Assembly: GCF_030028105.1 (NCBI RefSeq)
Contig: NC_092377.1
Span: 99,578,865-99,642,864, forward strand
DNA length: 64,000 nucleotides
Reading direction: 5' to 3'
DNA from: Mobula birostris
Taxonomy: Eukaryota
This document shows positions 1,615-53,633 of the stretch, piece by piece. How positions within the stretch are numbered: position 1 is the first letter of the stretch; the number at the start of each line of letters is the position of its first letter. Under the pieces are notes generated by a model. It was not told where the DNA came from and did no database searches. It saw only the letters and a list, made by a program, of their open reading frames with translations. Made by a program: the position numbers and the translations under genes.

Positions 1615-3000
1615 GTGATACAGAGAAATTTGTTTAGCCAAAGAGTAGTGAATTTGTGGAATTTGATACCACAAGCAGCTGTGGAGGCCAGCTCGTAGGA
1701 TGTATTTAAAGCTGAGATCGATAGGTTCTTGATTGGCCATTGAATCAAAGGTTATGGATTGAAGGCCAAGAAGTGGGGCTGAGGAGGGAGGAAACAAAGG
1801 ATCAGCCATGATTAAATGGCGGAGTAGACAAGAAGGGGCAAATGGCCTAATTCTGCCCTTGTGTCTCATGGTCTAACATGTCACACAGAAGGATATGTGG
1901 AGAAAGCTGTAGAGGTAGACATATTTACAATATGTAAAATACATCTGGACAGGTACATGGATAGGAAAGATCTGGAGTGCAGTGATCCAAATGAATGCAA
2001 TTGGGTATAGTTGAGTTTGGCAGCTTGGTCAGCATGGATGAGTTGGGCCAAACCGCTTAAAAACAGGAAAAAAGGGAGAGTCTTTGTCAGCTTCAAGCTT
2101 GCTCGATGACTCAATAAGAGAGAAACAATGGAGTCAATCATGGGCTCCAGGCTGTCAGGCCTCTAGGCCACACTCTCTGTTCCAAACCTCATCGAACTTC
2201 CTCACAGACACCAAAGTGCCCGATCACTCAATTGGCCCAAAAACACACCACCAAAATGTAAATCACAGGTTCCAATCACATACGGCTTCGTAGTAGAATC
2301 ATATTTGAAAATGGTAGTAAAGGAAGTAGTTTTGTGAACTGTCAGTCAGATCTCAGTGAAGCCTACTGACTCAGATGGTGTTGGATACGTGGAATGACAC
2401 AATAATATTCAAACAATATTTGGAATAGTACATAGAAGTACAGAGATGGGTTTGGGGGCCAAATGTAGGCCAATGGGACTGCCTAGATGGATATCTTGAT
2501 CAGCATAAATAGGATGGGTGCAATGGCCACCACCCCCCCCAGCACTACTATAACTACACATGCACATTGATCTGTTGTCCCTCTCTCTCCAAATTGAGTA
2601 CATCAATTAAACTGACCTCCGCATGCATTCTTTTATTTAATTGATATGTAGTTCTACAGACACAAGTACAAAGGATCTTGGCAGTTCTCATCTAGGATTC
2701 ACTAAAGGTTAACATGCAGCTTGAGTGGTTGGTAAGGAAGGCAAATGAAATGTTAGAATTCATTTCAAGAGGAGTAGAATATAAAAGCAAAGATGCAATG
2801 CCAAGACTTTTTTAGGCATTGGTCAGACGGTACTTGAAGAAATGTGTGAGCAGTTTTGGGCTACGTATCTAAAAAAGGGTACGCTGGCATAGCCTCAGAA
2901 CAGAGGAACATCCATTTAGAACAGAGGTGAGAAAGAATTTCTTCAGCTAGAGGGTGGTGAATCTGTGGAATTCAATGCCACAGGTGCCTGTGGAGGCCAA
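1615..3000 (+). mobile_element. Patchwork of degenerate CR1 LINE 3' fragments
   Basis: Remnants of FSQRVVNLWN...AVEA coding sequence and CR1 3' UTRs at about 1615-1880, 1881-2055, 2400-2530 and 2660-3000. Confidence 0.7.
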
Positions 3001-5034
3001 GTCCAGACCGCAATGTCTTTCTCTTCAGTGAGTACAGCTGAGAACTATATATTGCAGTCCATATCCTCTGGCCCACAGACAGGTTAGCCCTTTGATCCCT
3101 AATGCTGGGTGTGTACAAGCCTGTGTGCTCACTGCACAGTGTGGAGAGTTTTATAGGTCTCTGTCCTTACGGTGAAGGACAATGTTGGAAAGTTCATTGT
3201 CCGAGTGGAACATTGCTGACTGTTTCTGGACAATGCAGTGTGGTGTGTTTTCATTGATTCCTGTCAGTTCTCTATTGGGATGTAGAGGTCACACGGTGCA
3301 GTATCAGTTACCTGTCACTGTAAAAACCAAGTGTGTCCCACTGGTACACTTCTGTGGGCTTCCAAGTATTTGTGGGACATAAATAAAATGAGAAAATCAC
3401 CAAATGGAGAGAGGTAGTGAGTCCCAGATGGGAACCACACTCAGCAGAACACAAGACAACAGGAGCAGGAGTCACCCACCTGGCCCCTCACCCCTGCCCC
3501 ACCATGCAGTGTGAACCTGGCTGATCTGTCCCAGGCCTCACCTCCTCTTCTGTGCCAGTGCCACATTACCCTCTCATCTGTGATCTTTATATAATGTATC
3601 TCCTTCCTCATTAAATCTGTCCAGTGATTCAGCCTCCACACCCTCCAGGATAAAGAATTCCAAATATTCCCCATCTTCCATGAGATGTTCCTGCACATCA
3701 GCTTTAAATAACTACTCCCTGACCTTGTAACTCTGGAAACATCCCACCATCTCTCCTGTCAGCACTCCCAAGGACCTTGTGTAATTTAAGGAAGGTTTCC
3801 CCTCAATTTTCTAAACCCCAAAGAGCTTGTATCTGATTTCTTGATGTGACCTCAGCAACTCCCTGTACATCTATATCAATACTTCCCTATTTCTAATCTC
3901 CAACCACTTCCCCCCCCCATTTTAAAGACCAATGTACCATTTTCCTCTCACTTCCCAAGATTAAATTTCACCTACCATTCCTCTGCCTGATGGACCAGCT
4001 GAAGAATATCATGTTGTGTCTAACACAATCCTCCTCACTCTCTACCCCTCTGCAGATTTTCATGTCACCTGTAAACTTGCTGATCACATCACCTACTTTT
4101 AGTAGTAATCTCCACCACAACCCTCTGCCTCCCATAAACCAAGCTGATTTTAGATCCAGTTTGCCACCTCACCTTGTACCTCATGGGCATGAGCAGTTTG
4201 GACCAGACTCCCATACCTGAAAAGTTGAAGTCATCACCAAAATCTATGTAAACAATACCTCCCTCATTATCAAACTTATTTTCCACTTCTCAACATTTAG
4301 TGTGTGGGCTCCCAGAGTCAGTGAACACCACAGCAGAACCATCAAGTCTAGAATAAACAGCTGGTCCAGTGTGGCGAGTATTGGCCTGTAGTGAAAGCCT
4401 ATCAGTGAAACCTGACATCCTCCGGGGGAGGAGATCTACCGTCCTTCCTGGCCTCAGTGTGACTCCCGACGCACAGCAGTATCACTGACCCTTCTCTGCC
4501 CTCTGAAATGGGTTAGAAAGTCACTCTAGAACGTCTAGGGATTTGGGGATATTGGTGTCCCTGCTGGCGAATCCCTCACGCCGGTAAAGAATAAAACCAT
4601 TCCAGGAATGTCTGGCACAGAGTGAGGCCGTTCAGCCGTTCAGCCCGCACAGGACAATACCGTCTGTTCAGACCCATCCCTTCCGTCGGCTCACAGCCTT
4701 GTACGTTCAAACTTATAAATAACTCAATCAGATCTGAGATCTGCAGCCTCTGTTGCAAGAAAAGCAATGATTCTCAACGTCAGCTTCTTCCACTTCCACC
4801 TCCACCAGAGTTACCGGGCCCTAGGCGAGTTGTGATTGGCTGCGGCTAGGCACGATGACTGGCCCCTTAATATGTCCAAACAAAATATTAGATGAAGGTA
4901 ATAATTTTCATGCTAACCATTGACAACACTTGCTTTCCCAAATCCTTCCTTAGCATAGGATGGGAGCACTGCCAATTTAATCCAAACTGCGACCCGGTTC
5001 CACTTATTTTTGGGACTGAAACCGACAAAAAAAA

Positions 5035-5393
5035 ATGCTTGTTCTGGCGAAAGCTCCCAAGAAGGGGCCAAGAAAGCCGCGTTCAAGGGCAGCAAGAAGC
5101 GCAAGAGAGCGAAGAGGGAGACTAATGGTATCTATATCTACAAAGCGATGAAGCAGGTTCACCCCAGCACAGGCATTTCCTCCAAGGCCGTGTGCATCAT
5201 GAGCTCTACCGTTTACGATATTTCTGACCGCATCGCAGGCGAAGCTTCCCGCCTAGCCCGTTACAACAAGCCGTCGACCATCATTTCTCGGGAGATCCAG
5301 ACTGCCGTGCGCCTGTTGCTGCCCGGGGAGCTGGCCAAGCACGCCGTGTCGGAAGGGACGAAGGCGGTGACCAAGTACACCAGCTCCAAGTGA
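5035..5393 (+). pseudogene. H2B: Histone H2B, frameshifted and diverged (probable pseudogene)
   Basis: ATG at 5035 reads [12 protein letters not shown] missing base in the G-run at about 5064-5067 then shifts it out of the H2B frame (..[51 protein letters not shown]). Many substitutions fall at normally invariant sites, and the stem-loop is degenerate. Confidence 0.85.
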
Positions 5394-5422
5394 AGCTCCA
5401 CAGAGTGCTGACGAAACACAAC

Positions 5423-5438
5423 GGCTCTTTTAACGGCC
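5423..5438 (+). terminator. Degenerate histone 3' stem-loop (H2B)
   Basis: GGCTCT-TTTA-ACGGCC versus consensus GGCTCT-TTTM-AGAGCC; purine-rich gaaagaa about 16 nt downstream. Confidence 0.75.
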
Positions 5439-6304
5439 ACTCAATGTCTTGCTGAAAGAATTGCTCCAATATTTCAACAGTGAAATATAACAAATCATTT
5501 ATTGGAATCTTCAGTTTGGAAATCATTGTAATTTATGTTGTTGACAGCTTCCGGTCCATCTGTCCGGTTCAATCCCGGGATCGCTCTCCCTACCCATTGG
5601 CCGAACACCGACACTTGAACCTTTTCTCGATCAGCTTGGTTCGATTTCAGACATTCACGCACAAATTTACACAAAGAGCTTATTCTTGAGAGGGAGAATT
5701 TTGCTGTTGCGGGTTAATTGACGTTAGAGTGGTTTATTACCCGCAGTTCGGTGTTTGGTAACTGTCCTGAACCCTGTTCTGAATCAGCTGAGATTCGCAA
5801 TAGATTTACGGTCCTTTCACAAAACAACTTCACATCGCAGTCTCGACCCTGACCGCTGTTTCCGAGCCGTCCATAAGCTGATGCGTTTTAAATAATTTAA
5901 AAAAAGGCTGTCATGTTCTATGAATCAGCATTTATTCCGATCCGTAATTCAATGAGTATCTCGAAGCAGAGAACTAACTTTCGGGGCTCTGCGGATGTGG
6001 TCTATGTATTATTTCAGTTTTTAAAAAAATATTTGCACGGTTCGCCCACTTTTGCACATTGGTTGTTTGTTGGTCTTTGTGGTTTTCCATGGATTCTATT
6101 GTGTTTCTTTATTTTGTGGGTGTCTGCAAGAAGCGAACTTCAAGGTTGTATATGCTGTATAGAATTTGATAATAAATTTACTTTGAACATTAAACTTAAT
6201 AAACACTGTCAATATTATAAATGGATCAGGGTCATGTGACGGCTCCTATTCACACAGCTGTAATTATTTGCTTTCGGACTGTTCTATAGATTTATTTTCC
6301 TCTT

Positions 6305-6395
6305 GGCGGACTTTTCAAATTTCAGGATTTTCGGTTAGTTTTGGCGCTTGTCCTGTTGCCGCCCGTTCGCTGGTGATTGAGCTCTCTGATTGGCC
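6305..6395 (-). promoter_or_regulatory. CCAAT plus TTTGAA/CCGCC module 3' of H2A (shared with the H4 3' spacer)
   Basis: ccaatcagagagc ... cctgaaatttgaaaagtccgcc on minus; the second block is 21/22 identical to 54345-54366. Confidence 0.5.
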
Positions 6396-6663
6396 TTTTT
6401 CACTCGCCAATCAGATTATTACCGCCAACCAACCGCCGCCCTGTATTCACGCCGGAAGCGGCGCTAACGGTTCAAAAAAATCCTAAACTTTAGGTAAAAT
6501 GAGGCAATCTGTTAAAGTGGGCAAATAAATAGGTTTTATTTATTTCAGAGGAAGAGATGCGCTTTAGACTGAATTCAAAACGCTTGTCTACGACAGACAC
6601 TTTGAACGGAAATGCCCCGGACTCACCCAGTCGGTGCTCAGCCCTTCCACAGACAATCTGAGT

Positions 6664-6679
6664 GGCTCTGAAAAGAGCC
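6664..6679 (-). terminator. Histone 3' stem-loop (H2A copy 1)
   Basis: Perfect consensus GGCTCTTTTCAGAGCC 32 nt after the stop, followed by a ggaagggctg HDE-like element. Confidence 0.95.
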
Positions 6680-6710
6680 TTTGGGTTTTTAAATTGTCGC
6701 TTTTATCTCT

Positions 6711-7331
<621 letters not shown>

Positions 7332-7860
7332 CTATATTTATTATCAATGTATACTACATACAGCCTGAAGATTCATCTCCTTAGGATGAGCCACCAAACA
7401 AAGAAACATGATGGAACTCATTAAAAAAGATTGTCAAACACCCAATGTGCAAAAATGAACAAATCGTGCAAATTATAGAAAGTAAACAAATAATATTCAG
7501 AACTAAAGTTCATGAAAGTGAGTTCACAGTCACGAAGCCAGTCACAGCCGATACAGGATCCTGTTAGTTACAGGCCACAGCCTTGGTTCTGCACGGGAAT
7601 GAATAAACCTCACTGAGCAGCAAGCTGAACACCTTCCTGACCCCCAGCCCCAACACCCTGACATTTTCAATTTGGCCTGGTGCTTCAATCAACCAAACAC
7701 CAGCTTATTCCTGGCTCTCAGACCGGAGCCCTGCCGTCTCAGTTCAACACCAAACCACATCAAATAAAAAATAAAATTAAACAACAGACCAAAAGAAAGC
7801 AATTAGAAACCTCTCTGTGAACGTGGACTCCCTGCATGGTCAGTCACTGAATCCTGGTTA

Positions 7861-8138
7861 CCGTCGAGGAGAATATGAATTCTCTGTGAAGATAGGAGAA
7901 GATGGCGGCGCGACGCAGCTTGCGCGGCCTCTCCGGTGAATGATATCTGTAATCTGTCAAGTAGGGTGCTGTGCACAATCCTGATTTAATGGAGACAGAC
8001 GTGACAGAACGGAGGAACATCTGGAGAAACTTCTGAAATGCCTTTTTCGCTGCCGCTGTTACTATGTGATGCAGAATCTGCGGCGGGGAAGGCCCCGAAT
8101 CCTCGGCTTTGCTTGTTGCTCAGCGGCCGGGATGGGAT
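7861..8138 (+). mobile_element. Short insertion resembling a LINE/SINE 5' end (AAGATGGCGGCG)
   Basis: Absent from the matching position of the right arm (about 35750); CpG-rich; family not identified. Confidence 0.45.
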
Positions 8139-8706
8139 GTCCACAGAGACTGTGATGTGAATAATTCTACCATAACTGCCTCGGGGAATGTGTCCCTCTT
8201 TGTGAAAACGCAACACATCATGGAAGATTCACTTCACAGTCTGTGGTGGAAGCACAGAAACAGCAATATGAGAGTTAATTTATTCTGATGTAGGTTCAGG
8301 GCACCTAGGAAACAATATAGTGGAGTAACCAAGAGGCATTCCCTTCATGTCTAGAACACGAACAACAGAAAGCTTACAAAAATCCCATGCAACCTCATCC
8401 ACTGTCAATGGAAAAGTTCAATGGTATAAGTGTTTGAAGATGGAGACAAACTAATGGGGAAGAAGTGGAAGTTCCGTGTTAGTGCAGGAACACGGGAATT
8501 TTGCCTGCCCCCTTTTCAAGGATACATTCATGCCCGCTGTCCATGGAGAGGGAGCGCACGGTCGCAAAGGGTAAAGTGGGGGACTTCCGGGAGTGGTGCC
8601 CCCCCCCCGGGTATTGACTGTTTTAACCATAACAGTAGTAACCATGTCTGAGTATACTTACTGCCTTGTAAATATTGAATGTCTGTATCTTGTGTAGATA
8701 TGATGT

Positions 8707-10365
8707 TGTTACATACCTCAAGGAGATCTGTGATTTTTTTTTGTGAGAATGATGTAATGGTCTTTTGGAGATCACCTGATGTAATTTTCCTGCCATTGTG
8801 AGGTCACGTGAGGACATGTTCACCATGGGTATATAGGGGAAGACCTCAGATAATGCAGTGATATGTAGTGATTCTGTATCGGCCCTTGCAAGCATTAAGG
8901 CGGGTATAGCTAGAGGTCACCAGGATCTGCTTTATGAAATCCTGTTTGCAAATTCAAGACTGGCTAGACAAGGCAAAAATATCGCATTCATGTGGGTTCC
9001 AGCACATTCAGGTATTATGGGAAATGAGACTGCAGATAAGCTGGCAAAAGCAGCAACTAAAAAAGGATCTGTAGATGTCAATATTAAACTATCAAAATCA
9101 GAGGGGAAGAGCATAGTGTGGAGAAGGATAAATCAACAGTGGCAGCAGCATTGGGATAGAGCAATAAAAGGAAGACATTTACATTCAATTCAGAACAGAG
9201 TAGATATGGGAAGAAGTAGGGGAGTAAAGCGGAAGGAGCAAGTAATTATAAGTAGACTGAGAATTGGGCACAGCAACCTTAATGGCACTCTTGCTGTCAT
9301 AAATAAGCATCCAACAGGTTTTTGCAATCTCTGTCAGGAAACTGAAACAGTAGAGCATATCCTTATTTCATGCCAGAAATTTGCACAGGAAAGGCAACAA
9401 ATGTTACAACAATTACGCAAAATAGGACTGGTAGAGAACAGTGTTAAAAGTTTATTGGAACGTGGGGAGGGTGATCAGGGGAGGAAATGGTTGTTTAGTT
9501 ATTTAAGGGCGACGGGACTGGAAAGACGGCTTTAAAGTGAATGGAAAATGAAGGACAATAAATCCTGAAGGTGGCAGTAATGCAACAATGTGGATGCCAA
9601 CTGCTGTAAAAACTCAAAGAAGAAGAAGAAGAATGCAGTTAGTTTTTAGTTTTTAGTTTTCCAGCTAGAACATTAGTCTGTCTCCGTTTCTGTTGCATAT
9701 TTGTTTTTATGACGCGGCTTCATTTTTAAAATGGAGTGTTACGTTCTGTTGTAAGGTACAATAGTGCTGGACTGGCAATTTTTGCTAGATGTGTTGATGT
9801 ACCTTTTGCCAGTAGTATGGGAGAGTGAAGACTTTATCGAAGTACAGGACCTGAAGGAATAAGAGAAGTTGGTATCGTTCGGCAGTTTAATAAAGGATCA
9901 ACCTTACTGAGTATTCGTTGAAGAAGTAGCGACCTGCATTGAAGATAACTCTTGCCAAAAGAGTAAGGAAGTTCATGTGGAATTTGCTCTCTAGAAACTA
10001 AAGTCAGTTGTTTTAAGCCGTTTATTTCCTGCATCGTGACTCCTTTGGACAAAACCAACAGGAAAGTCTCATCTATGAAGAAATCCTTCTCCAGAGAAGT
10101 CTCTCCCAATTGAATGTATAATTCTGATGGACTTTTGAATTTACCATCTTAAGAACTGTGTTTGACTTTACCACTTTAAAAATACTTTGCCCTTTTACGC
10201 TTTAAGAACCAGTACCGAGTGACAATTGGTTAAACGGCCGCACAGCGGTTAACTTCCGGTTAAGGTTTTCGTTTGTTTTTTTTTGTTTATCCGTGTTTAA
10301 TAAATGTTTGGTTGTTTTTATATAACCTGTCTCCATTGTTATTCATTGTTGCCGGTTAAGTAACA
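8707..10365 (+). mobile_element. Solo LTR (TGTTAC...GTAACA) interrupted by a LINE
   Basis: TG..CA inverted termini; 4-bp TSD ATGT at 8703-8706 and 10366-10369; AATAAA near the 3' end. Confidence 0.8.
8860..9631 (+). mobile_element. I/Nimb-clade LINE, 5'-truncated (RNase H plus C-terminal zinc knuckle; ORF 8858-9535)
   Basis: SDSVSAL...WVPAHSGIMGNETADKLAK (RNase H); RLRIGH..C..C..ETVEHILISC; (GAA)n tail; TSD AATGCAGT at 8852-8859 and 9632-9639. Confidence 0.85.
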
Positions 10366-10576
10366 ATGTAAATAAACTTTTATAGTTTTGTAAAAAAAAC
10401 ACTAGAATTTCACAAGGACAGCTAATTGTCATCAACATAATCCTGAAACAGAAATATTGAAGCAGATGTAGAAAAGTATTTTCGAAATATTCAGACAAAT
10501 CTTTCAAGCAAATGGTGTGTGGCATCTAATAGAGTCAGTGGGTTTTCAGTTTGTTTTGTCAGCACCCTGTGGAAAT

Positions 10577-10804
10577 GCACTTGGAGCTGGTGTACATGAC
10601 CACTGCCTTTGTCCCTTCCGACATGGCGTGACTGGACAACTTCCCAAGCAGCATTAGCCACATGGCAGTTTGGATCTCCCAGGAGCTGATGGTGAACTGT
10701 TTCTTGTAATGGGCCAGGCAGGAAGCCTCACCTGTGATGTGCGTGAAAATCTCATACACGAATGTGTTCATGATGCACACGGCCTTGGAGGGGATGCTGG
10801 TGTC
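10577..10804 (-). pseudogene. H2B: 5'-truncated histone H2B relic fused to a CR1 fragment
   Basis: [75 protein letters not shown]; heavy CpG decay. Confidence 0.88.
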
Positions 10805-11930
10805 TCCAGAGTCTCAACATCCTTCCTATAATGGTGGGACCAAAACTGTATGCAAAACTTCAAATGCAGTCTATCTAGAGTTTTATAAACCGCAACATAA
10901 CTTGCTGACTATTGAACTCAGTGCCTCGAATAATAAAGGTATGCTTTCTTAACCATCCTATGATCCTGTGCAGCTACTTTCATGGAGCTATGAACTTGGA
11001 GCCCAAGATCTCTCTGCTCATCAACACTGTTCAAGGTCTTGCCTTTCACAGTATATTTTTGACCTACCAAGGTGTAACACTTCACATGTGGCCGGGTTAA
11101 ACTCCATCTGCTATTTTTCTGCCATATCTGTAACTGATCTATATCCCACTGTGTTCTTGCCCATCTTCTACACCATCCACAACAACACAAATCTTTACAT
11201 CATCTACAAAATTCCTAACCCAGCCATCTATATTTTCATCTAGGTCATTTATATACATCACAAACATCAGAGGTCCCAAAACAGATCCTTGTGGAATACC
11301 AGTAATGACAGACCTCCAGTAGAATAAGTCCCTTCAATCACTACCATCTGTCTCTACGAATCATCCAGTTGTAAATCCAAATTCACCATGAATCCCATTC
11401 ATGTTAATCTTCTGGATGACTAACCTTGTCAAACACCTTACTAAACCCATGTAGACAACAGATCTCCTGTGCCTTCATCAATCACCCTCATCACCTCATC
11501 AAAAACTCAATCAAGTTAGTAAGACACTACTTGCCCACATAAAGCCATGCTGGCTCTCCATAATTAGGCCATGATTTTCCAAATGCTCATAAATCCTATT
11601 CCAAAGAATTCTCTCCAATATCTTTCCTACCACTGACATGAGACTCACCGGTCTATAATTTCCAGGTTTATTCATGGTTCCCTTCTTGAATAATGGGACA
11701 ACTTTAGGCACTTGCCAGTCCTTCAGGATATCACCAGCGGCTAGAGAGGACATAAAGATATTGGTCAAGGCTTTAGTAATCTCTTCTCTTGCCTCCCTCA
11801 ATAATCTGGGGTATACCCGATCAGGCCATGGGGACTTATCCAGCTTAATGCTCTTTACTTTTACTTTACTTTGAAATGTGCTAGCATATCAATACACTTG
11901 CCATTGATCTCCCTATGCCCACGTCCTTCT
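10805..11930 (-). mobile_element. Degenerate CR1 RT fragment
   Basis: VVPLFKKG..KPGNYRPVSLMSVVGKILERIL..SQHGF and downstream CR1 RT motifs. Confidence 0.85.
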
Positions 11931-12442
11931 CTTGGTGCTGCACTATGTTCTATGTAACAGCCAACACTGTGCTGTAAGTACACAGAACTTCACAACAGTT
12001 GGCACCATACAATAAGGGCATAGTCCTTAACAACAGCTGACGCCATGCAGTCAGGGCACAGACCTTTAAAATGGATGACACCACACAGTGAGAGCACAGA
12101 CTGTTACCACAACCGGAACTCTACAGAAAGGGCACAGACCTTTACAACAGCCTGTACCATCCAGTAAGGGCACAGACTGTGACAACTGTCTTTGCTGTAA
12201 TGTAAGGGCACAACTTGTTTCAACAGCTGGTACCATAAAGTAAGAGCACTGATCATTACAACAGCAGCTACTGTACAATGAGGGCACAGGCTATTACGAC
12301 AGTCGGTTCCACACAGTAAGAGCACAGACCATTCGAACAGATGGTATCATTCAGGCAGAGCACTGACCATTACAACAGTTTAGTACTGGCTGTAAGTACA
12401 CACACCTTAACCACAGATGGCATCATACAGAAAAGGGACATG

Positions 12443-14310
12443 CAGTGCCTACAAAAAGTATGCAGCCCCTTGGAAGTTTTCATGTTTTATTGTTTTACAA
12501 CATTGAATCACAATGGATTTAATTTGGCTTTTTTGACACTGGGCAATAGAAAAAGGCTCTTGTGTCAAAGCGAAAACAAATTTCTACAAATTGGTCTAAA
12601 TTTATTACAATTATTAAACACAATAAAATTGACTGCATAAGTATTCACTCCTTTTAGATTAGATTAGATTCAACTTTATTGTCATTGTGCCGAGTACAGA
12701 CACAAAGCCAATGAAATGCAGTTAGCATCTAACCAGAATTGCAGAGAATAGTGTTATTTACAAAATAACTGTGAATAAAAAGTAAGTGCTACAGCACACA
12801 AATATAGAAGTACTGAGACAGTACAATATGGGTGCAATGCTGCTTAGTGCTGTGATGTGAGGTTCAGCAGGGTCACAGCCTCAGGGAAAAAGCTGTTCCT
12901 GTGCCTGCTGGTACGGGAGTGGAGGCTCCTGTAGCACCTACCAGAAGGGAGGAGAGTAAAAAGTCCATGGTTAGGGTGTGATGCATCCTTGATAATGCTT
13001 TTCGCCCTGTCCAGGCAGCATTTATGGTAGATGTTCTCAATGGTGGGCAATTGGGTGCCGATAATCCACTGGACAGTTTTCACCACACACTGGAGAACTT
13101 CGCAGTCCGATACGAGACAATTGCCATACCACACTGAGATGCAGTTGGTGAGTATGCTCTCAATGGTATGGTGGTAAAAGTCCGTCAGTATCCTGGGACA
13201 GAGATGGGCTTTCTTGATGCTCAGCAGGAAATAAAGGTGCCATTGTGCCTCTTTGATCAGGATGGAGGAGTTCAGAGACCAGGTGAGAGCCTCGAAAATG
13301 TGGACACCAAGGAATTTGAAGCTTGATACATGCTCCACTACAGCTCCATTGATGTAGATGGGGATGTGGGTGTGGCTCCTAACATGCCTGAAGTCCACAA
13401 TGATCTTCTTGATCTTCTGGGTGTTAAAGGCTGGGTTGTTGTCGGCACACCACGCGGCCAGGTGCTGGACCTCATCCCTGTAGGCTATGTCGTCATCCCC
13501 TCTGATCAGTCCAACCACCGTGGTGTCGTCTGTGAACTTGATTATGGAGTTAGAACCATGTACAGGAACGCAGTCATAGGTGAAAAGGGAGTGCAGAAGA
13601 GGGCTCAGCACACAGCCATGAGGCACACCGGTGTTCAGGGTGAGAGTGAATGAGGAGAGGTTGTCTAACTTTACTGATTGGGGTCTGTTAGTCAGAAAAT
13701 CCAAGGTCCAATTGCAGAGGGATGAGCTGATACCAAGCTGGCGGTTTGGCGATCAGCTTGGCGGGGATCACAGTATTGAATGCCGAACCAAGTCAATGAA
13801 CAGCATTCTGACGTAAGAGTTGGGGCTGTCCAGGTTGGGTCCCTGAGCAGGGTAAATGTATGGAAGACAGCTGATCCAGATGGAATACCTGGCTGTGTGC
13901 TCAGAGCCTGTGCAGGGCAGTTGGCCGGGGTCTTCACGGACATCTTTAATCTGTCCCTGGCCCAGGCAGTTGTCCCCACAAGCATCAAGATCACCACCAT
14001 TGTGCCAGTGCCGAAGCATTCCACTGCCACGGGCCTGAATGACTTCCGCCCAGTTGCACTCACCCCCATCATTGCAAAGTGCTTTGAGGGACTGGTTCTA
14101 TCACATCTGAAATCCTATCTGTCCAGTACCCTGGACCCCCATCAATTTGCCCATTGCACCAGCAGGTCAACAGAGGACGCCATCTCCATGCCACTTCACT
14201 CTGCCCTGGGTGGCGCAAACATCGGAGGAACATCGGTAATATGACACACTAAATCATTACTGGTACAGCCAATTAGTGTTAGAATTCACATGATTAGTTA
14301 AATGGAGATT
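12443..14310 (+). mobile_element. Tc1-like DNA transposon end fragment (12443-12655 and 14238-14310) split by a LINE
   Basis: Starts CAGTGCC..AAAAGTA..CA.CCCCTTG, typical of Tc1 TIRs, with an internal repeat of the aagtattcac motif. Confidence 0.65.
12656..14207 (-). mobile_element. Rex1/Babar-like LINE, 5'-truncated, with 5' inversion (13840-14207 on +)
   Basis: RT ORF 12844-13704 ([13 protein letters not shown]...[12 protein letters not shown]); (AATCT)n tail; upstream RT segment [17 protein letters not shown] on the opposite strand. Confidence 0.85.
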
Positions 14311-14772
14311 TATTTTTGGAGATTTGTGTACTTTTAAAACAGACAGTGCCATACTGTAAGGGCATGGAGCATTACAACAACCAACTCCTTATAGTAAGGG
14401 CAGAAATGTTACAACAGTCAGCACTGATCTGTAACAGCAAAGACTGTTACAACGCTTGTTTTATATAGCAAAGACACATATTGTTACAACAGCTGGTACC
14501 ATACAGTAAGGGCACACACTGTGACAACAGCCGCCAATGTACAATAAGGGCTCAGACCGTTACAACAGCTGGTACTGTACAGTAAGGGCACAGAACATTA
14601 CCACAGACTGAACAGTACGGTAAGGACACTGACTGTTACAACAGCTGGAACCATAGAGTAAGGGCACTGACCATTACAACAGCCAGTACCAATCTGTAAG
14701 AACATAGACCTTTACCATAGGTAGCACTATACAGAAAAGGGACATTCCTTTACAATAGACAGTGCTATACAG

Positions 14773-36728: not shown

Positions 36729-37253
<525 letters not shown>

Positions 37254-37283
37254 AGAGATAAAGCGACAATTTAAAAACCCAAA

Positions 37284-42900: not shown

Positions 42901-43505
42901 ACAATTATGCTGAAAAGTGGCCCTTTTTAATGCTTGCCCTGGATTTGTCGGCCTGCCACTTTTACTTTTCTCCTTAGTACTTTTTGCTTCTACCCTCACT
43001 TTACACCCCTCTGTCTCTCTGCACTGGTTCCCATCCCCCTGTTGTGAACTAACCTCCTCACGCCTAGCCTCTTTAATTTGATTCCCACCCCCCAACCATT
43101 CTAGTTTAAAGTCACCTCAGTAGCCCCCGCTAATCTCCCTGCCAGGATATTGGTCCCCCTAGGATTCAAGTGTAACCCGTCCTTTTGGTACAGGTCACGC
43201 CTGCGCCAAAAGAGGTCCCAATGATCCAAAAACTTGAATCCCTGCCCCCTGCTCCAATCCCTCAGCCACGCATTTATCCTCCACCTCATCGCATTCCTAC
43301 TCTCACTGTCGCGTGGCACAGGCAGTAATCCCGAGATTACTACCTTTGCGGTCCTTTTTCTCGACTCCCTTCCTAGCTCCCTATATTCTCCTTTCAGGAC
43401 CTCATCCCTTTTCCTACCTATGTCATTGGTACCTATATGTACCACTACTTCTGGCTCCTCACCATCCCACTTCAGGATATCTCGGACACGATCAGAAATA
43501 TCAGA
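39975..43505 (-). mobile_element. Young CR1 LINE, 5'-truncated within ORF1
   Basis: ORF1 esterase tail (HIGTND..DGLHLN) at 43101-43445, full ORF2, and (TTCTATGT)-type 3' tail. Confidence 0.93.
40063..43095 (-). CDS. CR1 ORF2: APE endonuclease plus reverse transcriptase, uninterrupted 1010-codon frame
   Basis: NARSI, GITETW, GVVYRPP, MGDFN, SDHN (APE); PGPDG, YRPVSLTS, YLDFQKAFD, QGSVLGP, KFADDTK (RT). The true start codon is uncertain. Confidence 0.9.
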   Translation of the reverse strand: MGGGNQIKEARREEVSSQQGDGNQCRETEGCKVRVEAKSTKEKSKSGRPTNPGQALKRATFQHNCIRAKTVVKERLKALCVNARSIRNKVDELKVQIVINDYDIVGITETWLQGDQGWELNVQGYSIFRRDRHEGRGGGVALLVKEEINAIERKDISREDVESIWVELRNTKGQKTLVGVVYRPPNSSSEVGDGIKQEIRNVCNKGTAVIMGDFNLHVDWVNQIGKGAEEEDFLECMRNGFLNQHVKEPTRQQAILDWVLSNEEGLISNLVVRGPLGKSDHNMVEFFIKMESDIVNSETKVLNLKRGNFEGMRRELAKIDWQMTLKGLTVNIQWQASKGCMDELQQLFIPVWQKNKSRKVVHPWLTREIRDSINSKEEAYKLARESGSPEDWEKFRIQQRRTKGLIRKGKKDYERKLAGNIKTDCKSFYRYVKRKRLVKTNVGPLQTETGELIMGSKDMADQLNNYFGSVFTKEDINNLPEIVGDRGSSEMEELSEIHVSREVVLGKLKGLKADKSPGPDGLHPRVLKEVAQERVDALVIIFQNSLDSGLVPEDWRVANITPLFKKGGREKPGNYRPVSLTSVMGKLLESVIKDVITAHLESGVMIGQSQHGFVKGKSCLTNLIEFFEDVTSRVDRGEPVDVVYLDFQKAFDKVPHRRLVCKLKAHGIGGKVLVWVENWLADRKQRVGINGTFSEWQAVTSGVSQGSVLGPQLFTIYINDLDEGIKCSISKFADDTKLGGSVSCEEDAKRMQGDLDRLGEWANSWQMQFNVDKCEVIHFGGKNRKTDYYLNGSRLGKGEVQRDLGVIIHQSLKVGMQVQQAVKKANGMLAFIARGFEYRSREVLLQLYKALVRPHLEYCVQFWSPNLRKDILAIEGVQRRFTRLIPGMAGLSYEERLDELGLYSLEFRRLRGDLIETYKILKGLDRLDAGRLFPMLGKSRTRGHSLRIEGKPFRTEIRKNFFSQRVVNLWNSLPQEAVEASSLAIFKRELDMALVATGVRGFGGKAGAGF

Positions 43506-45276
43506 AATACTGGAAAAGCTCAGGAAAATTCACTGGCACAATCTGGCAACAAACAGGTGAGAACACAGGACTGAAATACACTGAGCAATAGAGAGGCAGA
43601 TGATAGTTGGAGCACAATGAGACAGAAGTGGCAGCAAAACAGGTAGTGATGACAAACAGGTGAGGGGTGGAGTACTCAGTAATACAGGGGCCGGAGTGAG
43701 GACAGGAGCACATGGGGCATGAAAACAGACAAGAGCACATGGCAATACAAAACCACAGACTGACGGCTAGGGGGATGACACACAAAAAGACAAAGTTCAA
43801 CTGGGGGTACTGACAGGAGTCTGGTCCAAACTGTTCGAGCCCATAAGATACGAGGTGAGGTGGCAAACTGGAACTAAAATCAGCTTGGTTTATGGGAGGC
43901 CGAGGATGGTGGTGGAGAGTTGTTCTTCTCACTAGAAGGCTGTGACCAGTGGTGTATCACACGGATTGGTGCTAGGATCCTTTATGTTTGTGGCAGACAG
44001 CAACAACTTGGATGTTAAAGTAGGTGGTGTGATCAGCAAGTTTACAAGTGACACAAATATCTGTGGAGGTGTAAAGAGTGAGGAAGCCTGATTTAGACAC
44101 AACATGATATTCATCAGCTGGTCCGTCAGGCAGAGGAATGGGAGGTGGAATTCAATCTTGACAAGTGAGAGGGAAATGGTACATTGATCTAAGTCACAGG
44201 GGGTGGAGATCAGAAATAGGGAAGTACTGATATGGTTGTACAGGGAGTTGTTGAAGTCACAGCGAGGAAACAGATACAAGTTCTTTGGGATTTGGAAAAG
44301 TGAGGGATGACCTTCCTGAATCACACAAGGTCCTTAGGAGTGCTGACAGGAGAGATGTTGGGATGTTTCCACAGTAACAAGGTCAGAGAGCTATTTAAAG
44401 CGGATGTTCAAAAACATCTCACGGAGGGTGGGGGATGTTTGGAATTCGTTATCCCAGAGGGTGTGGAGGCCGAATCACTGGAGGGATTTAATGAGAATGG
44501 AGACACACTTTGGAAAGATCAGGAAGTTTGAGTGATGTGGAACTGGAGAGGAGGTGAGGCCAGGGACACATCAGCCAGGTTCACACTGCATGTTGGGGCA
44601 GGGATGAGGGGCTAGGAGGGTGACTCCTGCTCCTGTTGTCTTGTGTTCTGCTGATTTGTGGTTCCCATCTGGGACTCACTACCTCTTTCCATTTGGTGAT
44701 TATTTCCAGCATTTTCTCATTTTATTGATGTCCCACAAATACTTGGAAGCCCACAGAAGTGTACCAGTGGGACACACTTGGTTTTTACAGTGACAGGTAA
44801 CTGATACTGCACTGTGTGACCTCTACATCCGAATAGAGAACTGACAGGAATCAATGAAAACACGCCACACTGCATTGTCCGGAAACAGTCAGCAATGTTC
44901 CACTCGGACAATGAACTTTCCAACATTGTCCTTCACCATAAGGACAGAGACCTATAAAACTCTCCACACTGTGCAGTGAGCACACAGGCCTAAACACACC
45001 CAGCATTAAGGATCAAAGTGTTAACCTGTCTGTGGGCTAGAGGGTGTGGACTGAATTGTACTCATTAAAGAGAAAGGCATTGTCCTCTGGACTTAGCCAC
45101 CACAGGCAGCTGTATAAATGAATTTCACAGATTCACCACCCTCAAGCTGCAGAAATTCTTTGTCATCTCTGTTCTAAATGGATGTTCCTCTGTTCTGAGG
45201 CTGTGCCAGTGTAAACTTTCTTAGACAAGGAGCCCAAAGCTGCTCACTTTATTTCAAGTACAGTCTGACTAATGTC

Positions 45277-45550
45277 ATAGAAACATAGAAAACCTACAAC
45301 ACAATACAGGTCCTTTGGCCCACAAAGCTGTGCCGAACATGTCCTTATCTTAGACATTACCTAGGGTTACCCATAGCCCTGTATTTTTCTAATCTCTATG
45401 GACCTGTCCAGGAGTCTCTTAAAAGACCCTATCATATCTGCCTCCACCACCGCCGCTGGCAGCCCATTCCACGCACTCGCCACTCTCTGCGTACAAAACT
45501 TAGCCCTGACATCTCCTCTGTACCTGCTTACAAGCACCTTAAAACTCTCA
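45277..45550 (-). mobile_element. Short CR1 3' fragment
   Basis: Same subfamily tail as at 56486 (tagaaacatagaaaacctaca..). Confidence 0.8.
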
Positions 45551-47571
45551 CTGAGTATTTCAGCATTGAAACAGGCCATTCAGCCCATCCTATCTCTGCT
45601 GGCCAAGATGTCGATCCAGGCAGTCCCATTTGCCTGCATTTGAAATGACTTTATTGCTTATATCCTTCATATACATGAGGAGTAAAGATCTTTACATTAC
45701 GTCTCTGTCTAATGTGCAATTTATAGTAAATTATAAATATGATGTACAACAGGACAGTCAATATAACATGGAAATACAGTAGCATCAGCATGAATTAATC
45801 AGTCTGACGGCCTGGTGGAAGAAGATGACCCAGAGCCTGTTGGTCCTGGTTTTTATGCTGCGGTACTGTTTCCCGGATGGTAGCAGCAAGAACAGTTTGT
45901 GGTTGGGCTGACTTGGATCTCCAATAATCCTTTGGGCCCTTTTTACACACCTGTCCTTGTAAATGTCCTGAAGAGTGGGAAGTTCACATCTACAGATGCT
46001 CTGGGCTGACCACACCACTCTCTGCAGAGTCCTGTGATTCAGGGAACTACAGTTCCCATACCAGGCAGTGATGCAGCCAGTCAGGATGCTCTCAGTTGTA
46101 CCCCTGTAGAAAGTTCTTAGAATTTGGGGGCCCGTACCAAAGTTCTCAACCGTCTGATGTGAATGAGACTTTGTTGTGCCTTTTTCACCACACAGCCAGT
46201 ATGTACAGACCATGTGAGATCCTCAGTGATGTGGATGCCAAGGAACTTAAAGCTGTTCACCCTCTCAACCCGAGATCCATTGATGTCAATAGGAGCTAGC
46301 CTGTCTCCATGCCTCCTGTCGTCCACAACCAACTTCTTTGTTTTTGCGACATTGAGGGAGAGGTTGTTTTCTTGACACCACTATGTCAGGGTGATGACTT
46401 CTTCCCTGTAGTCTGCCTCACTATTATTTGAAATTAGGCCAATCAGTGTAGTGTTGTCAGCAAATTTAATTTGCAGATTGCAGCTGAGAGTGGCAATACA
46501 GTCATGGGTATACAGAGAGTAAAGGAGGGAGCTTACGACACAGCCCTGAGGGGCACCTGTGTTGAGAGTCAGAGGGTTGGAGGTGAGGGAGCCCATTCTT
46601 ACCACCTGCTGGCGATCTGACAGGAAGTCCAGGATCCAGCTACAAGGCAGGGTGAAGGCCGAGGTCTCTGAGCTTCTTGTTCATTTCATTTTCATTTTTA
46701 AATCTTTTTATTAATTATTATTGAAAATCGACAACAAAAATACATTAAAATAATCAAGTCAATATATCAATATGTATAATAAGAGTCAAACTATTAACCA
46801 AGCTAAACAATATACCAATAAAAATAATTTTTAAAAAATGTTAAAGCTCTTTTTTTTTGGAAAAAAGAAAGAAGGAAAAAAGAACCCCTACTAACTAAAA
46901 AAAAAAAACATTTGGAGCATAAACCCGGAGCTATACGCCATACAAGCTTCTATTAAAAAAAGACATCAATCCGCCAACCAAATCCATTTACCCAAGAATC
47001 AGAAGGGGACCATCTTAATGAACTCAAATCAAATGATAGTAGCAGGCAAAAGAGCCCCACCTTTTCTCGATGACAAATCGAGGATCAAAAGTTCGACTTC
47101 TGATTTTCTCAAAACTAAGACACAGCATCACCCGAGAGAATCATTGTATCAAAGTGGGAGCAGAAGCATCTTTCCACTTTAATAAAATAGCCCTTCTAGC
47201 CAATAATGTAACAAATGCAATTACATGTTGGTCTGATATAGAAATACCATGAATATATTGAGGAATTGTACCAAACAAAAATATCAATTTATTAGGTTGT
47301 AAATTAATTTTTAAAGCTTTAGAAATTGTAGAAAAAATAGATTTCCAAAACTGTTTCAATTCAGAACACGACCAAAACATATGTGTCAATGTAGCTATCT
47401 CAATTTTTCATCTATCACACTGACTATTAACATTAGGAAATATTTTAGACAGTCTCTCCTTTGTCAAATAATAACAATGTACAATTTTAAATTGAATTTA
47501 AGAATGACTGGTGCAAATCGAAGAAGAGTTAACCAACTTCAAAATTCGCAACCAATCCTCTGTTATCAAGG

Positions 47572-50202
47572 AACACACGTCAAAATTGCTGGTGAACGCA
47601 GCAGGCCAGGCAGCATCCCTAGGAAGAGGTACAGTCGACGTTTTGGGCCAAGACTCGGGTCGACTGTACCTCTTCCTAGAGATGCTGCCTGGTCTGCTGC
47701 GTTCACCAGCAACTTTGATTTGTGTTAGTCATAGTCACAGTCATGCTTTATTGATCCTGGGGGAAATTGGTTTTCATTACAGTTGCACCATAAATAATTA
47801 AATAGTAATAATAAAACCATAAATAGTTAAATAGTAATATGTAAATTATGCCAGGAAATAAGTCCAGGACCAGCCTATTGGCTCGGAGTGTCTGACTGTC
47901 CAAGGGAGGAGTTGTAAAGTTTGATGGCCACAGGCAGGAATGACTTCCTATGACGTTCTGTGTTGCATCTCGGTGGAATGAGTCTCTGGCTGAATGTACT
48001 CCTGTGCCCAACCAGTACATTATGTGGTGGATGGGAGACATTGTCCAAGATCACATGCAACTTGGACAGCATCCTCTTTTCAGACACCACCGTCAGAGAG
48101 TCAAGTTCCATCCCCACAACATCACTGGCCTTACGAATGAGTTTGTTGATTCTGTTGGTGTCTGCTACTCTCAGCCTGCTGCCCCAGCACACAACAGCAA
48201 ACATGATAGCACTGGCCGCCACAGACTCATAGAACATCCTCAGCATCGTCTGACAGTTGTTAAAGGACCTCAGTCTCCTCAGGAAATAGAGACGGCTCAG
48301 ACCCTTCTTGTAAACAGCCTCAGTGTTCTTTGACCAGTCCAGTTTATTGTCAGTTCAAATCCCCAGGTATTTGTAATCCTCCACCATGTCCACACTGATC
48401 CCTGGATGGAAACAGGGGTCGCCAGTACCTTAGCTCTCCTCAGGTCTACCACCAGCTCCTTAGTCTTTTTCACATTAAGCTGCAGATAATTCTGCTCACA
48501 CCATGTGACAAAGTTTCCTACTGTAGCCCTGTACTCAGCCTCATCTCCCTTGCTGATGCATCCAACTATGGCAGAGTCATCAGAAAACTTCTGAAGTTGA
48601 CAAGACTCTGTGCAGTAGTTGAAGTCCGAGGTGTAAATGGTGAAGAGAAAGGGAGACAAGACAGTCCCCTGTGGAGCCCCAGTGCTGCTGATCACTCTGT
48701 CGGACACACAGTGTTGCAAGCACACGTACTGTGGTCTGCCAGTCAGGTAATCAAGAATCCATGACACCAGGAAAGCATCCCCCTTCATCGCTGTCAGCTT
48801 CTCCCCCAGCAGAGCAGGGCAGATGGCGTTGAACGCACTGGAGAAGTCAAAAAACGTGACCCTCACAGTGCTCGCTGGCTTGTCCAAGTGGGCGTAGACA
48901 CGGTTCAGCAGGTAGACGATGGCATCCTCAACTCCTTGTCGGGGCTGATAGTCAGACTGGAGGGGATCTAAGTGTGGCCTGACCATAGGCCGGAGCAGCT
49001 CCAGAACAAGTCTCTCCAGGGTCTTCATGATGTGAGAGGTCAATGCCACCAGTCTGTAGTCATTGAGGCCGCTGGGACACGGCGTCTTCGGCACAGGGTC
49101 GAGGCAGGATGTCTTCCACAGCACAGGAACCCTCCGGAGCCTCAGGCTCAGGTTAAAGACATGGCAAAGTACTCCACGTAGCTGAGGGGCACAGGTTTTG
49201 AGCACCCTGGTACCGACACCATCCGGTCCTGCAGCCTTGCTTGGGTTGAGACATTTCAGCTGTCTTCTCACCTGTTCAGCTGTGAAGCCCACCGTGGTGG
49301 TTTCATGTGGGGAAGGGGTGTAGGCATGAGAGCAGGGTGGGGGACTGTGAGGAGGGATAGGAGGGGAGAGTGGAATATATGTTGGTTGGGGGCTGACAAC
49401 AGATGACTCATGTGGGGGATGGGCAGGGGCCACAATGTCAAATCTGTTAAAGAACAGGTTAAGTTCGTTGGCCCTGTCCACACTGCCTTCAGCTCCTCTG
49501 TTGTTAGTTTGCTGGAACCCAGTGATGGTCCTCATCCCCCTCCAGACCTCTCTCATGTTGTTCTGCTGGAGTTTCCACTCAAGCTTCCTCCTGTACCTGT
49601 TTTTAGCCTCCCTGATCCTGGCTTTCAGGTCCCTCTGTAATGCCCTCAGCTCCTCCCTATTTCCATCTCTAAACGCCCTCTTTTTAGCGTTCAGGATGTC
49701 CTTAATGTCCTTTGTTACCCATGGCAGTCCACACAGAAGTTGATGTAATCAGTGATGCACTCTGTGAGCCCATCAATATCCTCTCCATGTGGCTCACAGA
49801 GTGCCTGCCAGTCTGTCACCTCAAAACAACCCTGGAGCACCTCATAAGCCTCCACCGGCCATTTCCTCACTGTCCTCGAAGTTGCAGGTTTACTCTTCAC
49901 CAGAGGCACGTAGCAGGGTTTTAGATGCACCAGGTTGTGATCTGGCCTTCCCAAAGGGGGGAGGGGAGAGCAGCTGTATGCATCCTTCATGTTAGCGTAC
50001 ATCAAATCCAGAGTCCTCTCCCCTCTGGTTGTACAGCTCACATACTGCGTGAAGTTGGGCAGTGTTCTAGCCATGGTAACGTGGTTGAAGTCACCCGACA
50101 TGGTAATGAGGGCACTCGGGTGCTGGGTTTGTAATCTGGCTATGACGATATAAATTGGTGTTGCTTGAATTTCCAGCATCTGCAGAATTCCTCCTGTTTG
50201 TG
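47572..50202. mobile_element. Fold-back mini-PLE (47572-47726 and about 50157-50202) split by a LINE
   Basis: Palindromic PLE tail; 14-bp TSD CTCTGTTATCAAGG at 47558-47571 and 50203-50216. Confidence 0.85.
47727..50156 (-). mobile_element. Rex1/L2-group LINE with partial endonuclease and RT (ORF 48297-49556)
   Basis: GDFNH, DHNLVHL, KAAGPDG, FFDFSSAFN, GAPQGTVLSPFLF, KFSDD; (ATGACT)n tail. Confidence 0.88.
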
Positions 50203-51711
50203 CTCTGTTATCAAGGTCATGTTAAGCTCTCTTTCCCAATCTTGCTTAATCTTAAATAGAGGATAATTATCCTGTTGTAATAGTAAATTATAAATTTTCC
50301 CAATAAAACCTTTCACTAAAGGGTTCATTTTTAAGATAATGTCTAACAGGTCAGAATCTTGTATATATGGAAAATTACTTAAATATTCTTGTAAAAAATG
50401 TCTGACCTGAAGATATTGCAAAAAGTGTGAGTGTGAGAGAGAGTATTTAGTTACTAATTTCTCAAAGGACATCAATCAGCCTTCTTGAATCAAATCCATA
50501 AACGAATAAATTCCTTTATTCCTCCAAAGAGAAAAGGCAGGATCACTAAGTGAAGGTTTAAATAAATAGTTTTGATAAATTAAACTAAGAAGGTTAAATT
50601 TTTTAAGATTAAAAAACTTATGAAACTGGTACCAAATTCGTAATGACTGCTTAATCATAGGAATTATATTTAAAATAGAAATTTTGGCTAGTTGTACAGG
50701 TGAAGAAGCTCCTAATAACGAACTTAAGTAAAATATTTTTTCACAGCTTTCAATTCCAAATCAACACATGGTGGTCATTCATTTTTATAGGTCCAATATA
50801 ACCAAGGACACACATAGTGTATATTAACCACCCAATAATACATTCTTAAATTAGGCAAAGCAAGACTTCCATCCTTTTTTAATTTTTGTAAATGACATTT
50901 TCCAATTCTTGATCTTTTATTATTCCAAACAAAAGATGAAATGAGCTTCTTGTCAAGCCTGGAGGGAATTACGGTGTTGGATGCTGAACTGTAGTCCAAG
51001 AACAGCATTCTCACATAAGCATCCTTCTTCTCCAGATGCATAAGGATGGTGTGTAGAGCTGAGTCCATTGCGTCATCTGTCGATTGATAGGCAAAATGTA
51101 GATGGTCCATTGTGGGTGGTAGCGTGCTGCAGATGTAGTCCTTGACCAGCCTCTCAAAGCATTTGCTTATTATTGAGGTGAGTGTGACCGGACGCCAGTC
51201 ATTCAGACATGTTACACTGGTCGTTTTAGGGACTGAAACAATAGCAGGAAGGCACTCTACACTGCGAGGGGGAGAGATTAAAAATGTCTGTAAACACACC
51301 TGCCAGTTGTGCCACGCACATCCTGAGTACCCACCGTGGGATGCCGTCCGATGCCGTAGCCTTATGACTGTCCACTCGTTGGAAACACCTGCATACTTCA
51401 TCCTTAGAGATGACCAAGCTGCAGATCGCATCAACTGTAGGTCTCCTCAGGGGCTCAGTGTTGGAAGCATCGAATGGAGGGGAGAAAAGATTTAGCTCAT
51501 CTGGGAGAGAGGCAGCAATGCTGGAACTCCACTTCATTTAGCTATGAAGTCTGCGATGGTGTGTAGACCTTGCCATAAGCTGCATATATTGTTGGTGGAA
51601 AGTTGTGTCTGGATCATGTCCCAAACCCATCTGTTTACTCCTATCTACTTTTCCAAATATCATTTGGATGTTGTGATTGTGACTGCCTCAACCATTTCCT
51701 CTGGCAGCTTG

Positions 51712-52965
51712 CGTCATGGTCTGGTCCATGAAGTCTGCATTCCAGTTCACGGTCCGGTCCGTGGACTCAGGACTCCGGGTCTTCCAGCTGTCCCTTGTTT
51801 AAGTTAATCATAGGCACCTAATTCCCATCTTTGGGCTTGCAATATAAGTAGCCTTGGGACTGAGTGTGGGCTGCTGGTTTGTCTTGTCAGTCCCCCTTGG
51901 AGCAACCTGCTGATGAAACCATTTGTGATCTCTAGGCCTGGTTGGAGGACCACTGCTTCATGAAGCCTTGTTGCCATTTGTTGGAGTAGTCTTTGCGATA
52001 TGGATTCGGCTGTTTCCTGGGCCAGCTGAGTGGCTGCCAGCCACTCTGAGCTAGGTAGGGATCTGGCTGTTTCTGTAATCAGATGAGGTTGCTGGCTGAA
52101 CTGAGACTTGGAGCTACCCTGGGGCAGAGATGGAACTGTCTGTTGTTCTTTGGTGTTCGTCTCTTCTTGTCCTCGCCTCCATGGGCTAAGTCAGGCGGTC
52201 TTGCTGTTGCCCTGCGGGGGGTCATGTCTTGTCTTATCTTGTCCTCGCCTACGTGGGGTACATCAGGCCGTCTTGCTGTTGCCCTGTGGGGAGACCTGTC
52301 TTGTCATGTCCTTGCCTCTGTTGGGTAAATCCAGCCGTTCTGCTGTTACCTGACGGAGAGACCTGTCCCACCTTGGTGTGGAGATGAAGTTGAGTCCTGG
52401 CTTGTCATAGGGTAAGTCCCAGCTCTATGTCTATGTTCTGTTCTGTCTCATGTTAGTAATATGTTAAAGCTGAGTCCTGGCTTGTCGAAGGATAAGTCCT
52501 GGCTCTATGTTGATGTTCAGTTCCCAGTCTGTCTCTCAGCTCCAGCCTCCGAGTTATCAGCCTCCGCATTTCAAGACGAAGATCCCGCAGCCAAGCTCGA
52601 AGACCCCAAGCCTCGAAGATCCCTCAGCCAAGACCCAAGATCCCAAGCCTCGAGGATCCCAAGCCAAGCTCAAGACCCAAGACCCCAAGCCTCGAGGATC
52701 CCAAGCCAAGCTCAAGACCCAAGACCCCAAGCCAAGCTCAAGACCCAAGACCCCAAGCCTCGAGGATCCCAAGCCAAGCTCAAGACCCAAGACCCCAAGC
52801 CTCGAGGATCCCAAGCCAAGCTCAAGACCCAAGACCCCAGGCCTTGAGGATCCTAAGCCAAGCTCAAGCCCCAAGACCCCAAGCCTCAGGGATCCCAAAC
52901 CAAGCTCAAGACCCAAGACCCCAAGCTTCGACGATCCCAAGCCAAGCTCAAGACCCAAGACCATG
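51712..52965 (+). mobile_element. LTR-like element related to 18713-20017, 3'-truncated
   Basis: Shared 5' end gtcatggtctggtcc.tgaagtctg.attccagttca; no closing TGACA seen. Confidence 0.65.
52580..52962 (+). repeat. 42-bp tandem repeat (about 9 units)
   Basis: Unit CAAGACCCAAGACCCCAAGCCTCGAGGATCCCAAGCCAAGCT. Confidence 0.92.
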
Positions 52966-53633
52966 GTCGAGCGGTTGGCAACCATACCGTAGGTTGTATA
53001 CAGATATATACAGCACAGAAATAGGCCCTTTGGTCCAACTCATCCATGTCGACCAAGCTGCACCCAATTGCCTTCAATTAGGCTGTTTCACTCCAAATCT
53101 TTCCCCTCCATGTACCTGCTCAGACATATTTTAAATATTGTGAATATACCTACCTCTACAGCTTCTTCCACATATCCTTCTGTGGGAAATGTTGTCCCTC
53201 AGGTCCCTTAAAATCTCTGTCCTCTCACAATATCTATGCCCTTTACACTTAAACGTTCCTCTATTTTGGGTGGGGGGGGTAAGACAGATAGTCCACCTTA
53301 TTAATATCTTTCATGATTATATAAACCTGTACAAAGTCTTTATACTCCAGGGAAAAGTCCCAGTCTGTTTATAACTCAAGCCCTCTCCATATAACTCCAG
53401 CCCCAGGGATATCCTTGTGAATATTTTCTACTCCCTTTCCAGCTTAAATAACTTATTTCCTGTGGCTCTGTGACTAAAACTGCACATAGACCACAAGAAG
53501 TCTCAGGAATATTTTGTGCAGAGTAGCACACCGTCCGTCACTGCCTCCACCCCTCTCCGCACTGCCCGTCACTCTGTCTCCTCCCTCTCCCTCCCTCTCT
53601 CTCTACGTTTCTCGGACAGGTCGGGGCGCTGTG

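Follow-up and report, generated by a model that had tools for sequence, protein, structure and literature searches.

How can two histone H2A genes stay nearly identical when the inverted duplication that carries them has decayed on either side? This question is raised by a histone locus of the ray Mobula birostris. The window, meaning the whole stretch of DNA that was analysed, comprises 64,000 nucleotides (RefSeq assembly GCF_030028105.1, contig NC_092377.1, positions 99,578,865 to 99,642,864 of the forward strand), and positions are counted from its first letter. In it, part of a histone cluster was duplicated locally and in inverted orientation long ago; the duplication is about 51 kb long and has since decayed. 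We regard it as probable, and hold this view with good confidence, that the H2A pair inside it is kept near-identical by repeated short-tract gene conversion from arm to arm. Coordinates of all features are collected in Table 1.

A decayed inverted duplication

BLASTN was used to compare positions 1-22000 of the window with positions 22001-64000. The left 22 kb gave 34 minus-strand matches to the rest, 18 of which formed the best colinear chain. The first three chain members belong to a pair of Penelope-like copies and were removed, which left 15 inverted blocks that run strictly colinearly from L1875/R53193 inward to L18479/R25817 (L, left arm; R, right arm) and include non-repeat flanks of histone genes. 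The original prediction of an inverted duplication, as opposed to scattered transposon matches, is thereby borne out. Its arm limits (1881-18328 and 27339-53187) were recovered, and one block was found further inward. The term palindrome, which it had also used, is loose: the arms are inverted, but they enclose a spacer and are only about 85% identical. With approximately 6.9 kb aligned at this identity, the locus falls short of ampliconic palindromes, which are defined by arms >10 kb and identity >99%.

The aligned part comprises 6880 columns, distributed over spans of 16605 bp (41% still alignable) on the left and 27377 bp (25%) on the right. No inverted self-match and no further inverted homology were found in the spacer. 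Outside the H2A island described below, substitutions affect 843 of 6289 columns (13.4%; Kimura two-parameter distance 0.149), and the background outside all four islands of low divergence amounts to 15% (819/5463 columns). Dating with the rate of the epaulette shark, 7e-10 per generation (PMC10587355; papers cited by identifier are drawn on here for the available parts of their text), was rejected. The resulting figure, about 1e8 generations for each arm, is not credible, and no age of the duplication is therefore given.

Idiosyncratic junctions are shared by the arms, as had been predicted. A CR1 fragment is fused to an H2B remnant with the same junction on both sides (L10416-11646/R33141-34419), and the CR1 pieces of both arms carry common deletions relative to younger CR1 copies. 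Private insertions opposite empty sites were likewise found. Three insertions of the right arm are flanked by target-site duplications of 5, 4 and 13 bp, and the left arm has a single empty site for each of them; a left-arm insertion at approximately 7882-8137 is the reverse case, with a degenerate target duplication. Because target-site duplications occur together with empty sites in the other arm, these insertions post-date the duplication.

Near-identity of the H2A pair

The most informative feature of the locus, which the original prediction did not mention, is an island of near-identity around the H2A genes (island 1). Both copies are intronless open reading frames followed by a 3' stem-loop that passes the RF00032 gathering score, as is characteristic of replication-dependent histone genes. 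Of their 390 coding bases a single one differs, at codon 69; the change is synonymous and leaves the proteins identical. The 591 columns of the island contain 2 mismatches, a divergence of about 0.3%, in addition to two 1-nt indels. The ends are sharp: identity covers the 77 nt before the ATG and the island reaches 125 nt past the stop codon, and on either side the divergence is 14-19%.

The duplication could be real and the identity of its H2A genes could still be due to purifying selection on protein, codons, promoter and 3' processing signals, combined with rate variation and with no conversion at all. Histone genes are under strong constraint, the island roughly coincides with the H2A gene and its signals, and birth-and-death evolution with purifying selection is given as the usual model for jumbled vertebrate clusters in the part of a recent review available to us (PMC13525598). 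Nevertheless, this explanation is improbable. Just 1 of approximately 102 synonymous sites differs, where about 14 differences would be expected at the rate of the flanks (P=7e-6). Four-fold sites also show a deficit of differences (P=2e-4), and the codon bias of the genes is moderate (C32, G27, T12 and A6 at four-fold sites). The highest-identity relatives with full coverage among 120 listed proteins (95-97%) come from Mobula hypostoma, Hemitrygon akajei and M. birostris itself, in line with a myliobatiform ray as the likely host. The tails of the two H2A proteins lie 4-6 residues away from the closest listed ray proteins, yet they are identical between the arms; S123 and A128 are present in both tails and absent in the three closest listed ray proteins. 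Selection on H2A would also leave unexplained an island located in a dead CR1 element, which is detailed below.

Low methylation is not the cause of the identity either, because the 3' flank of H2A is equally CpG-rich (observed/expected ratio about 1.0) and yet differs at 122 of 647 columns, being the most diverged part, and because the contrast persists at non-CpG sites, where 1/518 positions differ in the H2A island versus 706/5185 outside.

An error of assembly or polishing, in which reads of similar H2A genes were fused into one consensus, was considered as well. Multi-copy histone genes are prone to collapse, and the HIST2 inverted repeat was absent from the first human reference (PMC9526256). 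The two copies of the H2A island retain 2 substitutions and 2 indels, however, and polishing is not expected to produce islands of 2.5-3.4% divergence within unique DNA that has diverged by 15%. An artefact of this kind is therefore very improbable.

Further islands of low divergence

Three more islands (2-4) of 2.5-3.4% divergence stand out from the 15% background. With H2A left out of the alignment, 3 perfect runs of at least 80 columns were observed versus 0.002 expected, and 8 runs of at least 50 columns versus 0.30 expected (5000 permutations); this test assumes a uniform rate and is the sole correction for island edges that were picked after inspection. The paralogues thus show sharply bounded stretches in which identity is in excess, neutral sites included, and it is by such stretches that gene conversion is recognised. 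A third copy of island 2, at 16215-16514, reaches only 77% identity; constraint alone therefore does not hold island 2 at 97%. Island 4 lies within a broken CR1, and this location makes selection on it unlikely. Its neighbouring columns diverge more (33/222 and 15/106 on the two sides).

A wider pool of genomic H2A copies might instead homogenise both genes, which would make the inverted layout irrelevant. Large histone clusters exist in rays (10.1101/2025.06.08.657570), and the closest listed ray H2A clusters have 10 and 27 members. Against such a pool, island 1 takes in both flanks of the gene and the other three islands lie outside any histone gene. In addition, disabling changes in island 4 are common only to the two arm copies among four aligned. 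We consequently give the wider pool little credence.

Island 2 lies in, and island 3 next to, an element that was recorded separately. One is a non-repeat-looking element present in three copies (3060-3500, minus strand; 44595-45048, plus; 16215-16514, plus), in which there may be a short exon (AG...GT) and the downstream part is conserved. The other consists of promoter-like regions with CCAAT and CGGAAG motifs at 4720-4860 and 39097-39210. Together they may belong to a transcription unit that has decayed or does not code for protein.

Probable patchy conversion between the arms

In the explanation that we favour, conversion would have passed from arm to arm in patches. Selection on H2A would have slowed divergence and so preserved a homologous stretch. 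Conversion would have stayed frequent there while the remaining arms mostly escaped from it. The three non-coding islands would be older, single conversion events. The two arms, not a third copy, would act as donor and acceptor. Non-allelic conversion has been described with a mean tract of 250 bp and an 'escape with divergence' (10.1101/135152, available part), and the island lengths of 200-590 bp fit both this tract length and the escape model.

Several points weigh against this explanation. The evidence consists of the two arms of one genome, and relatives from other species were compared at the protein level; the H2A relatives used for this are representatives of 90% clusters and not necessarily orthologues. 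Fisher values for the islands are inflated, because the island edges were chosen post hoc. Selection could act on islands 2 and 3, given their likeness to an exon and a promoter, and further H2A copies elsewhere in the genome could act as donors.

Two extensions of arm-to-arm conversion may be mentioned. A tentative and rather doubtful idea is that, at this vertebrate histone locus, a very old inverted duplication has decayed except where its working genes lie. H2A, together with H4 and H3 should the left arm go on, would then each survive as a mirror pair locked by conversion, the partners separated by 30-60 kb of retroposon debris. The near-identical 0.6-kb H2A islands could also allow repeated flipping of the 30-kb interior.

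The left edge and a possible mirror H4

The outermost match of the right arm ends at 53193, which is 501 bp before the start of H4, in agreement with the roughly 500 bp originally reported. At this outer end, the arms share an old CR1 fragment in which both have the same deletions. Its right copy continues to approximately 53500, and its left copy is cut mid-element at 1875 by the 3' terminus of a different CR1. The left edge therefore looks like a later insertion and not like the breakpoint of the duplication. The intruding CR1 3' end (1616-1874) is itself interrupted by a Penelope-like element that runs out of the window.

The original prediction placed a mirror set of H4, H3 and H1 to the left of the window. 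A recognisable mirror H4 is predicted there with slightly better than even chances. An intact three-gene set is much less likely: most of the arm sequence no longer aligns, an H2B has been deleted from the right arm, and the H1-like gene on the right is broken.

The Penelope-like copies at 1-1615 and 57777-59421 were examined as a candidate mirror pair, which would have meant that the left H4, H3 and H1 were deleted. This was rejected. The copies match in direct orientation over their full length (85-88% identity), and each has an inverted terminal part, with different inversion points. Their targets differ as well, the right copy lying inside a CR1 with a 14-bp target duplication. Direct orientation over the whole length and different targets identify them as independent insertions. 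A GIY-YIG domain was detected in the right, 88%-identical copy at 58201-58485.

Histone genes and mobile elements of the window

Apart from H2A, the histone complement is reduced. All H2B copies are lost or decayed; the left-arm pseudogene at 5035-5393 has had its counterpart deleted from the right arm, and an Rfam search found no stem-loop at the gathering score for it. Stem-loops of H3 (33.5), H4 (23.6) and the H1-like remnant (26.8) score below the RF00032 gathering score of 34. The remnant, probably H1 but with no Pfam match, is only a 99-bp 3' piece of the gene. No linker-histone domain was matched in 22 of the 74 listed downstream reading frames (21 on the minus strand), and a motif search did not find the H1 globular domain.

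The histone genes stand tail to tail as H2B-H2A (5035-7100) and H4-H3 (53695-55502); the usual arrangement of H2A and H2B is a head-to-head pair. No tRNA genes were found in 1-53600. When sequencing runs were searched with the H4-H3 spacer, 13 were listed: four from one organism contained 0.56-0.63 of its words, four from a second 0.23-0.24, two 0.04 and three 0.00; these shares are not taken as evidence.

The right-only insertion with TG...CA ends is itself interrupted by a long CR1-like long interspersed nuclear element (LINE) with a reverse transcriptase reading frame at 40063-42465. An element resembling a solo long terminal repeat (LTR) occurs in two copies (26836-27321 and 39760-43815) that are 82-85% identical and confined to the right arm. 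A Gypsy-like retrotransposon fragment at 29701-31950, with a reading frame for reverse transcriptase and RNase H at 30008-30997, interrupts the right copy of a shared CR1 piece. Two LTR-like elements whose interior holds GC-rich tandem repeats are located at 18700-20020 and 51720-52990. The left arm contains a 38-bp minisatellite in patches separated by insertions (11981-12441, 14334-14763 and 16003-16164), and a weak inverted trace of it is present on the right arm at 31914-32011. A decayed C2H2 zinc-finger-like remnant was seen by eye at 26240-26420 (minus strand), where a motif search gave no match.

Table 1. Features of the M. birostris histone locus, in window coordinates (n/a, strand not applicable)
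Feature	Position	Strand	Basis or remark
Left arm of inverted duplication	1875..18479	n/a	15 colinear minus-strand blocks
Right arm, lengthened by private insertions	25817..53193	n/a	colinear minus-strand blocks
Spacer, 7337 bp	18480..25816	n/a	between arms
Homogenised island 1, left: H2A with 125 nt of 3' flank and 77 nt of 5' flank	6586..7177	n/a	arm alignment
Homogenised island 1, right partner	36787..37378	n/a	arm alignment
Island 2, left; partner 44615-44989	3119..3480	n/a	9/362 columns differ
Island 3, left; partner 39293-39491; adjoins promoter-like CCAAT region	4490..4696	n/a	6/199 columns differ
Island 4, left; partner 29214-29478; inside dead CR1-like fragment	17500..17765	n/a	9/265 columns differ
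Intact replication-dependent H2A, left copy, 129 amino acids; stem-loop 6639-6684	6711..7100	-	RF00032 above gathering score
Intact H2A, right copy; stem-loop 37279-37324	36864..37253	+	RF00032 above gathering score
H2B pseudogene, left arm	5035..5393	+	ATG out of frame with body (frameshift near start), many replacements
H2B 3' remnant fused to CR1 fragment, left copy	10552..11646	-	arm alignment
CR1 fragment fused to H2B 3' remnant, right copy, same junction	33141..34272	+	arm alignment
Right-only insertion, TG...CA ends, 5-bp target duplication GGAGT	39760..43815	n/a	empty left site
Right-only solo-LTR-like insertion, 4-bp target duplication CTAC	34653..35599	n/a	empty left site
Right-only LINE-like 3' fragment, 13-bp target duplication with 1 mismatch	38059..38876	+	empty left site
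Right-only nested retroposon stack, 5977 bp versus 3-bp gap on left	45643..51619	n/a	arm alignment
Penelope-like element (1-1615) and CR1 3' end (1616-1874), cutting outermost block of left arm	1..1874	n/a
Intact H4 open reading frame; stem-loop 54034-54079 (below gathering score)	53695..54006	+	no left partner inside window
H3; stem-loop 55022-55067	55092..55502	-	part of 3' half reads N; span fits full-length gene
3' end of Lys/Pro-rich histone gene, 99 bp, cut by a CR1; weak stem-loop 56314-56359	56389..56487	-

Comparison with known systems

The closest known case is the mammalian HIST2 inverted repeat, which is large and contains the H2AC18/H2AC19 pair; in primates it also has two H2B pseudogenes (PMC9526256, PMC5100578, available parts). 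Both loci lie in replication-dependent histone clusters and combine a large inverted repeat with a duplicated H2A pair, which in HIST2 has one protein accession, and with H2B pseudogenes. Unlike HIST2, the arms of the ray locus are about 15% diverged, with approximately 7 kb per arm aligned and identity confined to short islands, and inside the window only H2A and H2B remnants are paired, with no pair of H3 or H4. Nothing tested points to common descent of the two loci.

Human non-allelic conversion, as far as described in the available part of 10.1101/135152, resembles the ray case in tracts of a few hundred bases and in conversion that wanes with divergence. That study concerns human gene families, whereas in the ray the background comes from colinear flanks whose insertions are dated, and a dead LINE contains one of the tracts. 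Palindromes of sex chromosomes (10.1101/800185) share inverted arms, a spacer and likely arm-to-arm copying, but exceed 99% identity over more than 10 kb, compared with about 85% for the ray arms. The flip/flop repeat of Saccharomyces (PMC9731477) is likewise old and inverted, with functional genes around which it has been homogenised; there, in contrast, the whole 4-kb repeat is homogenised and re-inversion has been shown, whereas in the ray inversion is a possibility.

For genomes whose histone loci are jumbled, a 2026 review states that concerted evolution 'lacks evidence' (PMC13525598); as far as available to us, its main text does not include cartilaginous fishes, some of which may be listed in its supplementary species table. 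Large histone clusters have been described in the red stingray, in a main text whose available part does not mention inverted repeats (10.1101/2025.06.08.657570). The literature search, with most subscription papers outside it, returned no paper that deals with this locus or with histone genes duplicated in inverted orientation in rays. An inverted histone duplication is also known from the chicken, which the search did not find, and gene conversion among mouse H2A and H2B genes was reportedly the subject of work by Liu, Liu and Marzluff in 1987.

The mechanism, with inverted histone repeats and short conversion tracts, is already known from mammals. The value of the ray locus lies less in the palindrome itself than in the internal control that it provides for conversion at a vertebrate histone gene, as colinear flanks that have diverged by 15% and dead H2B copies that have drifted stand next to a live H2A pair at 0.3%.

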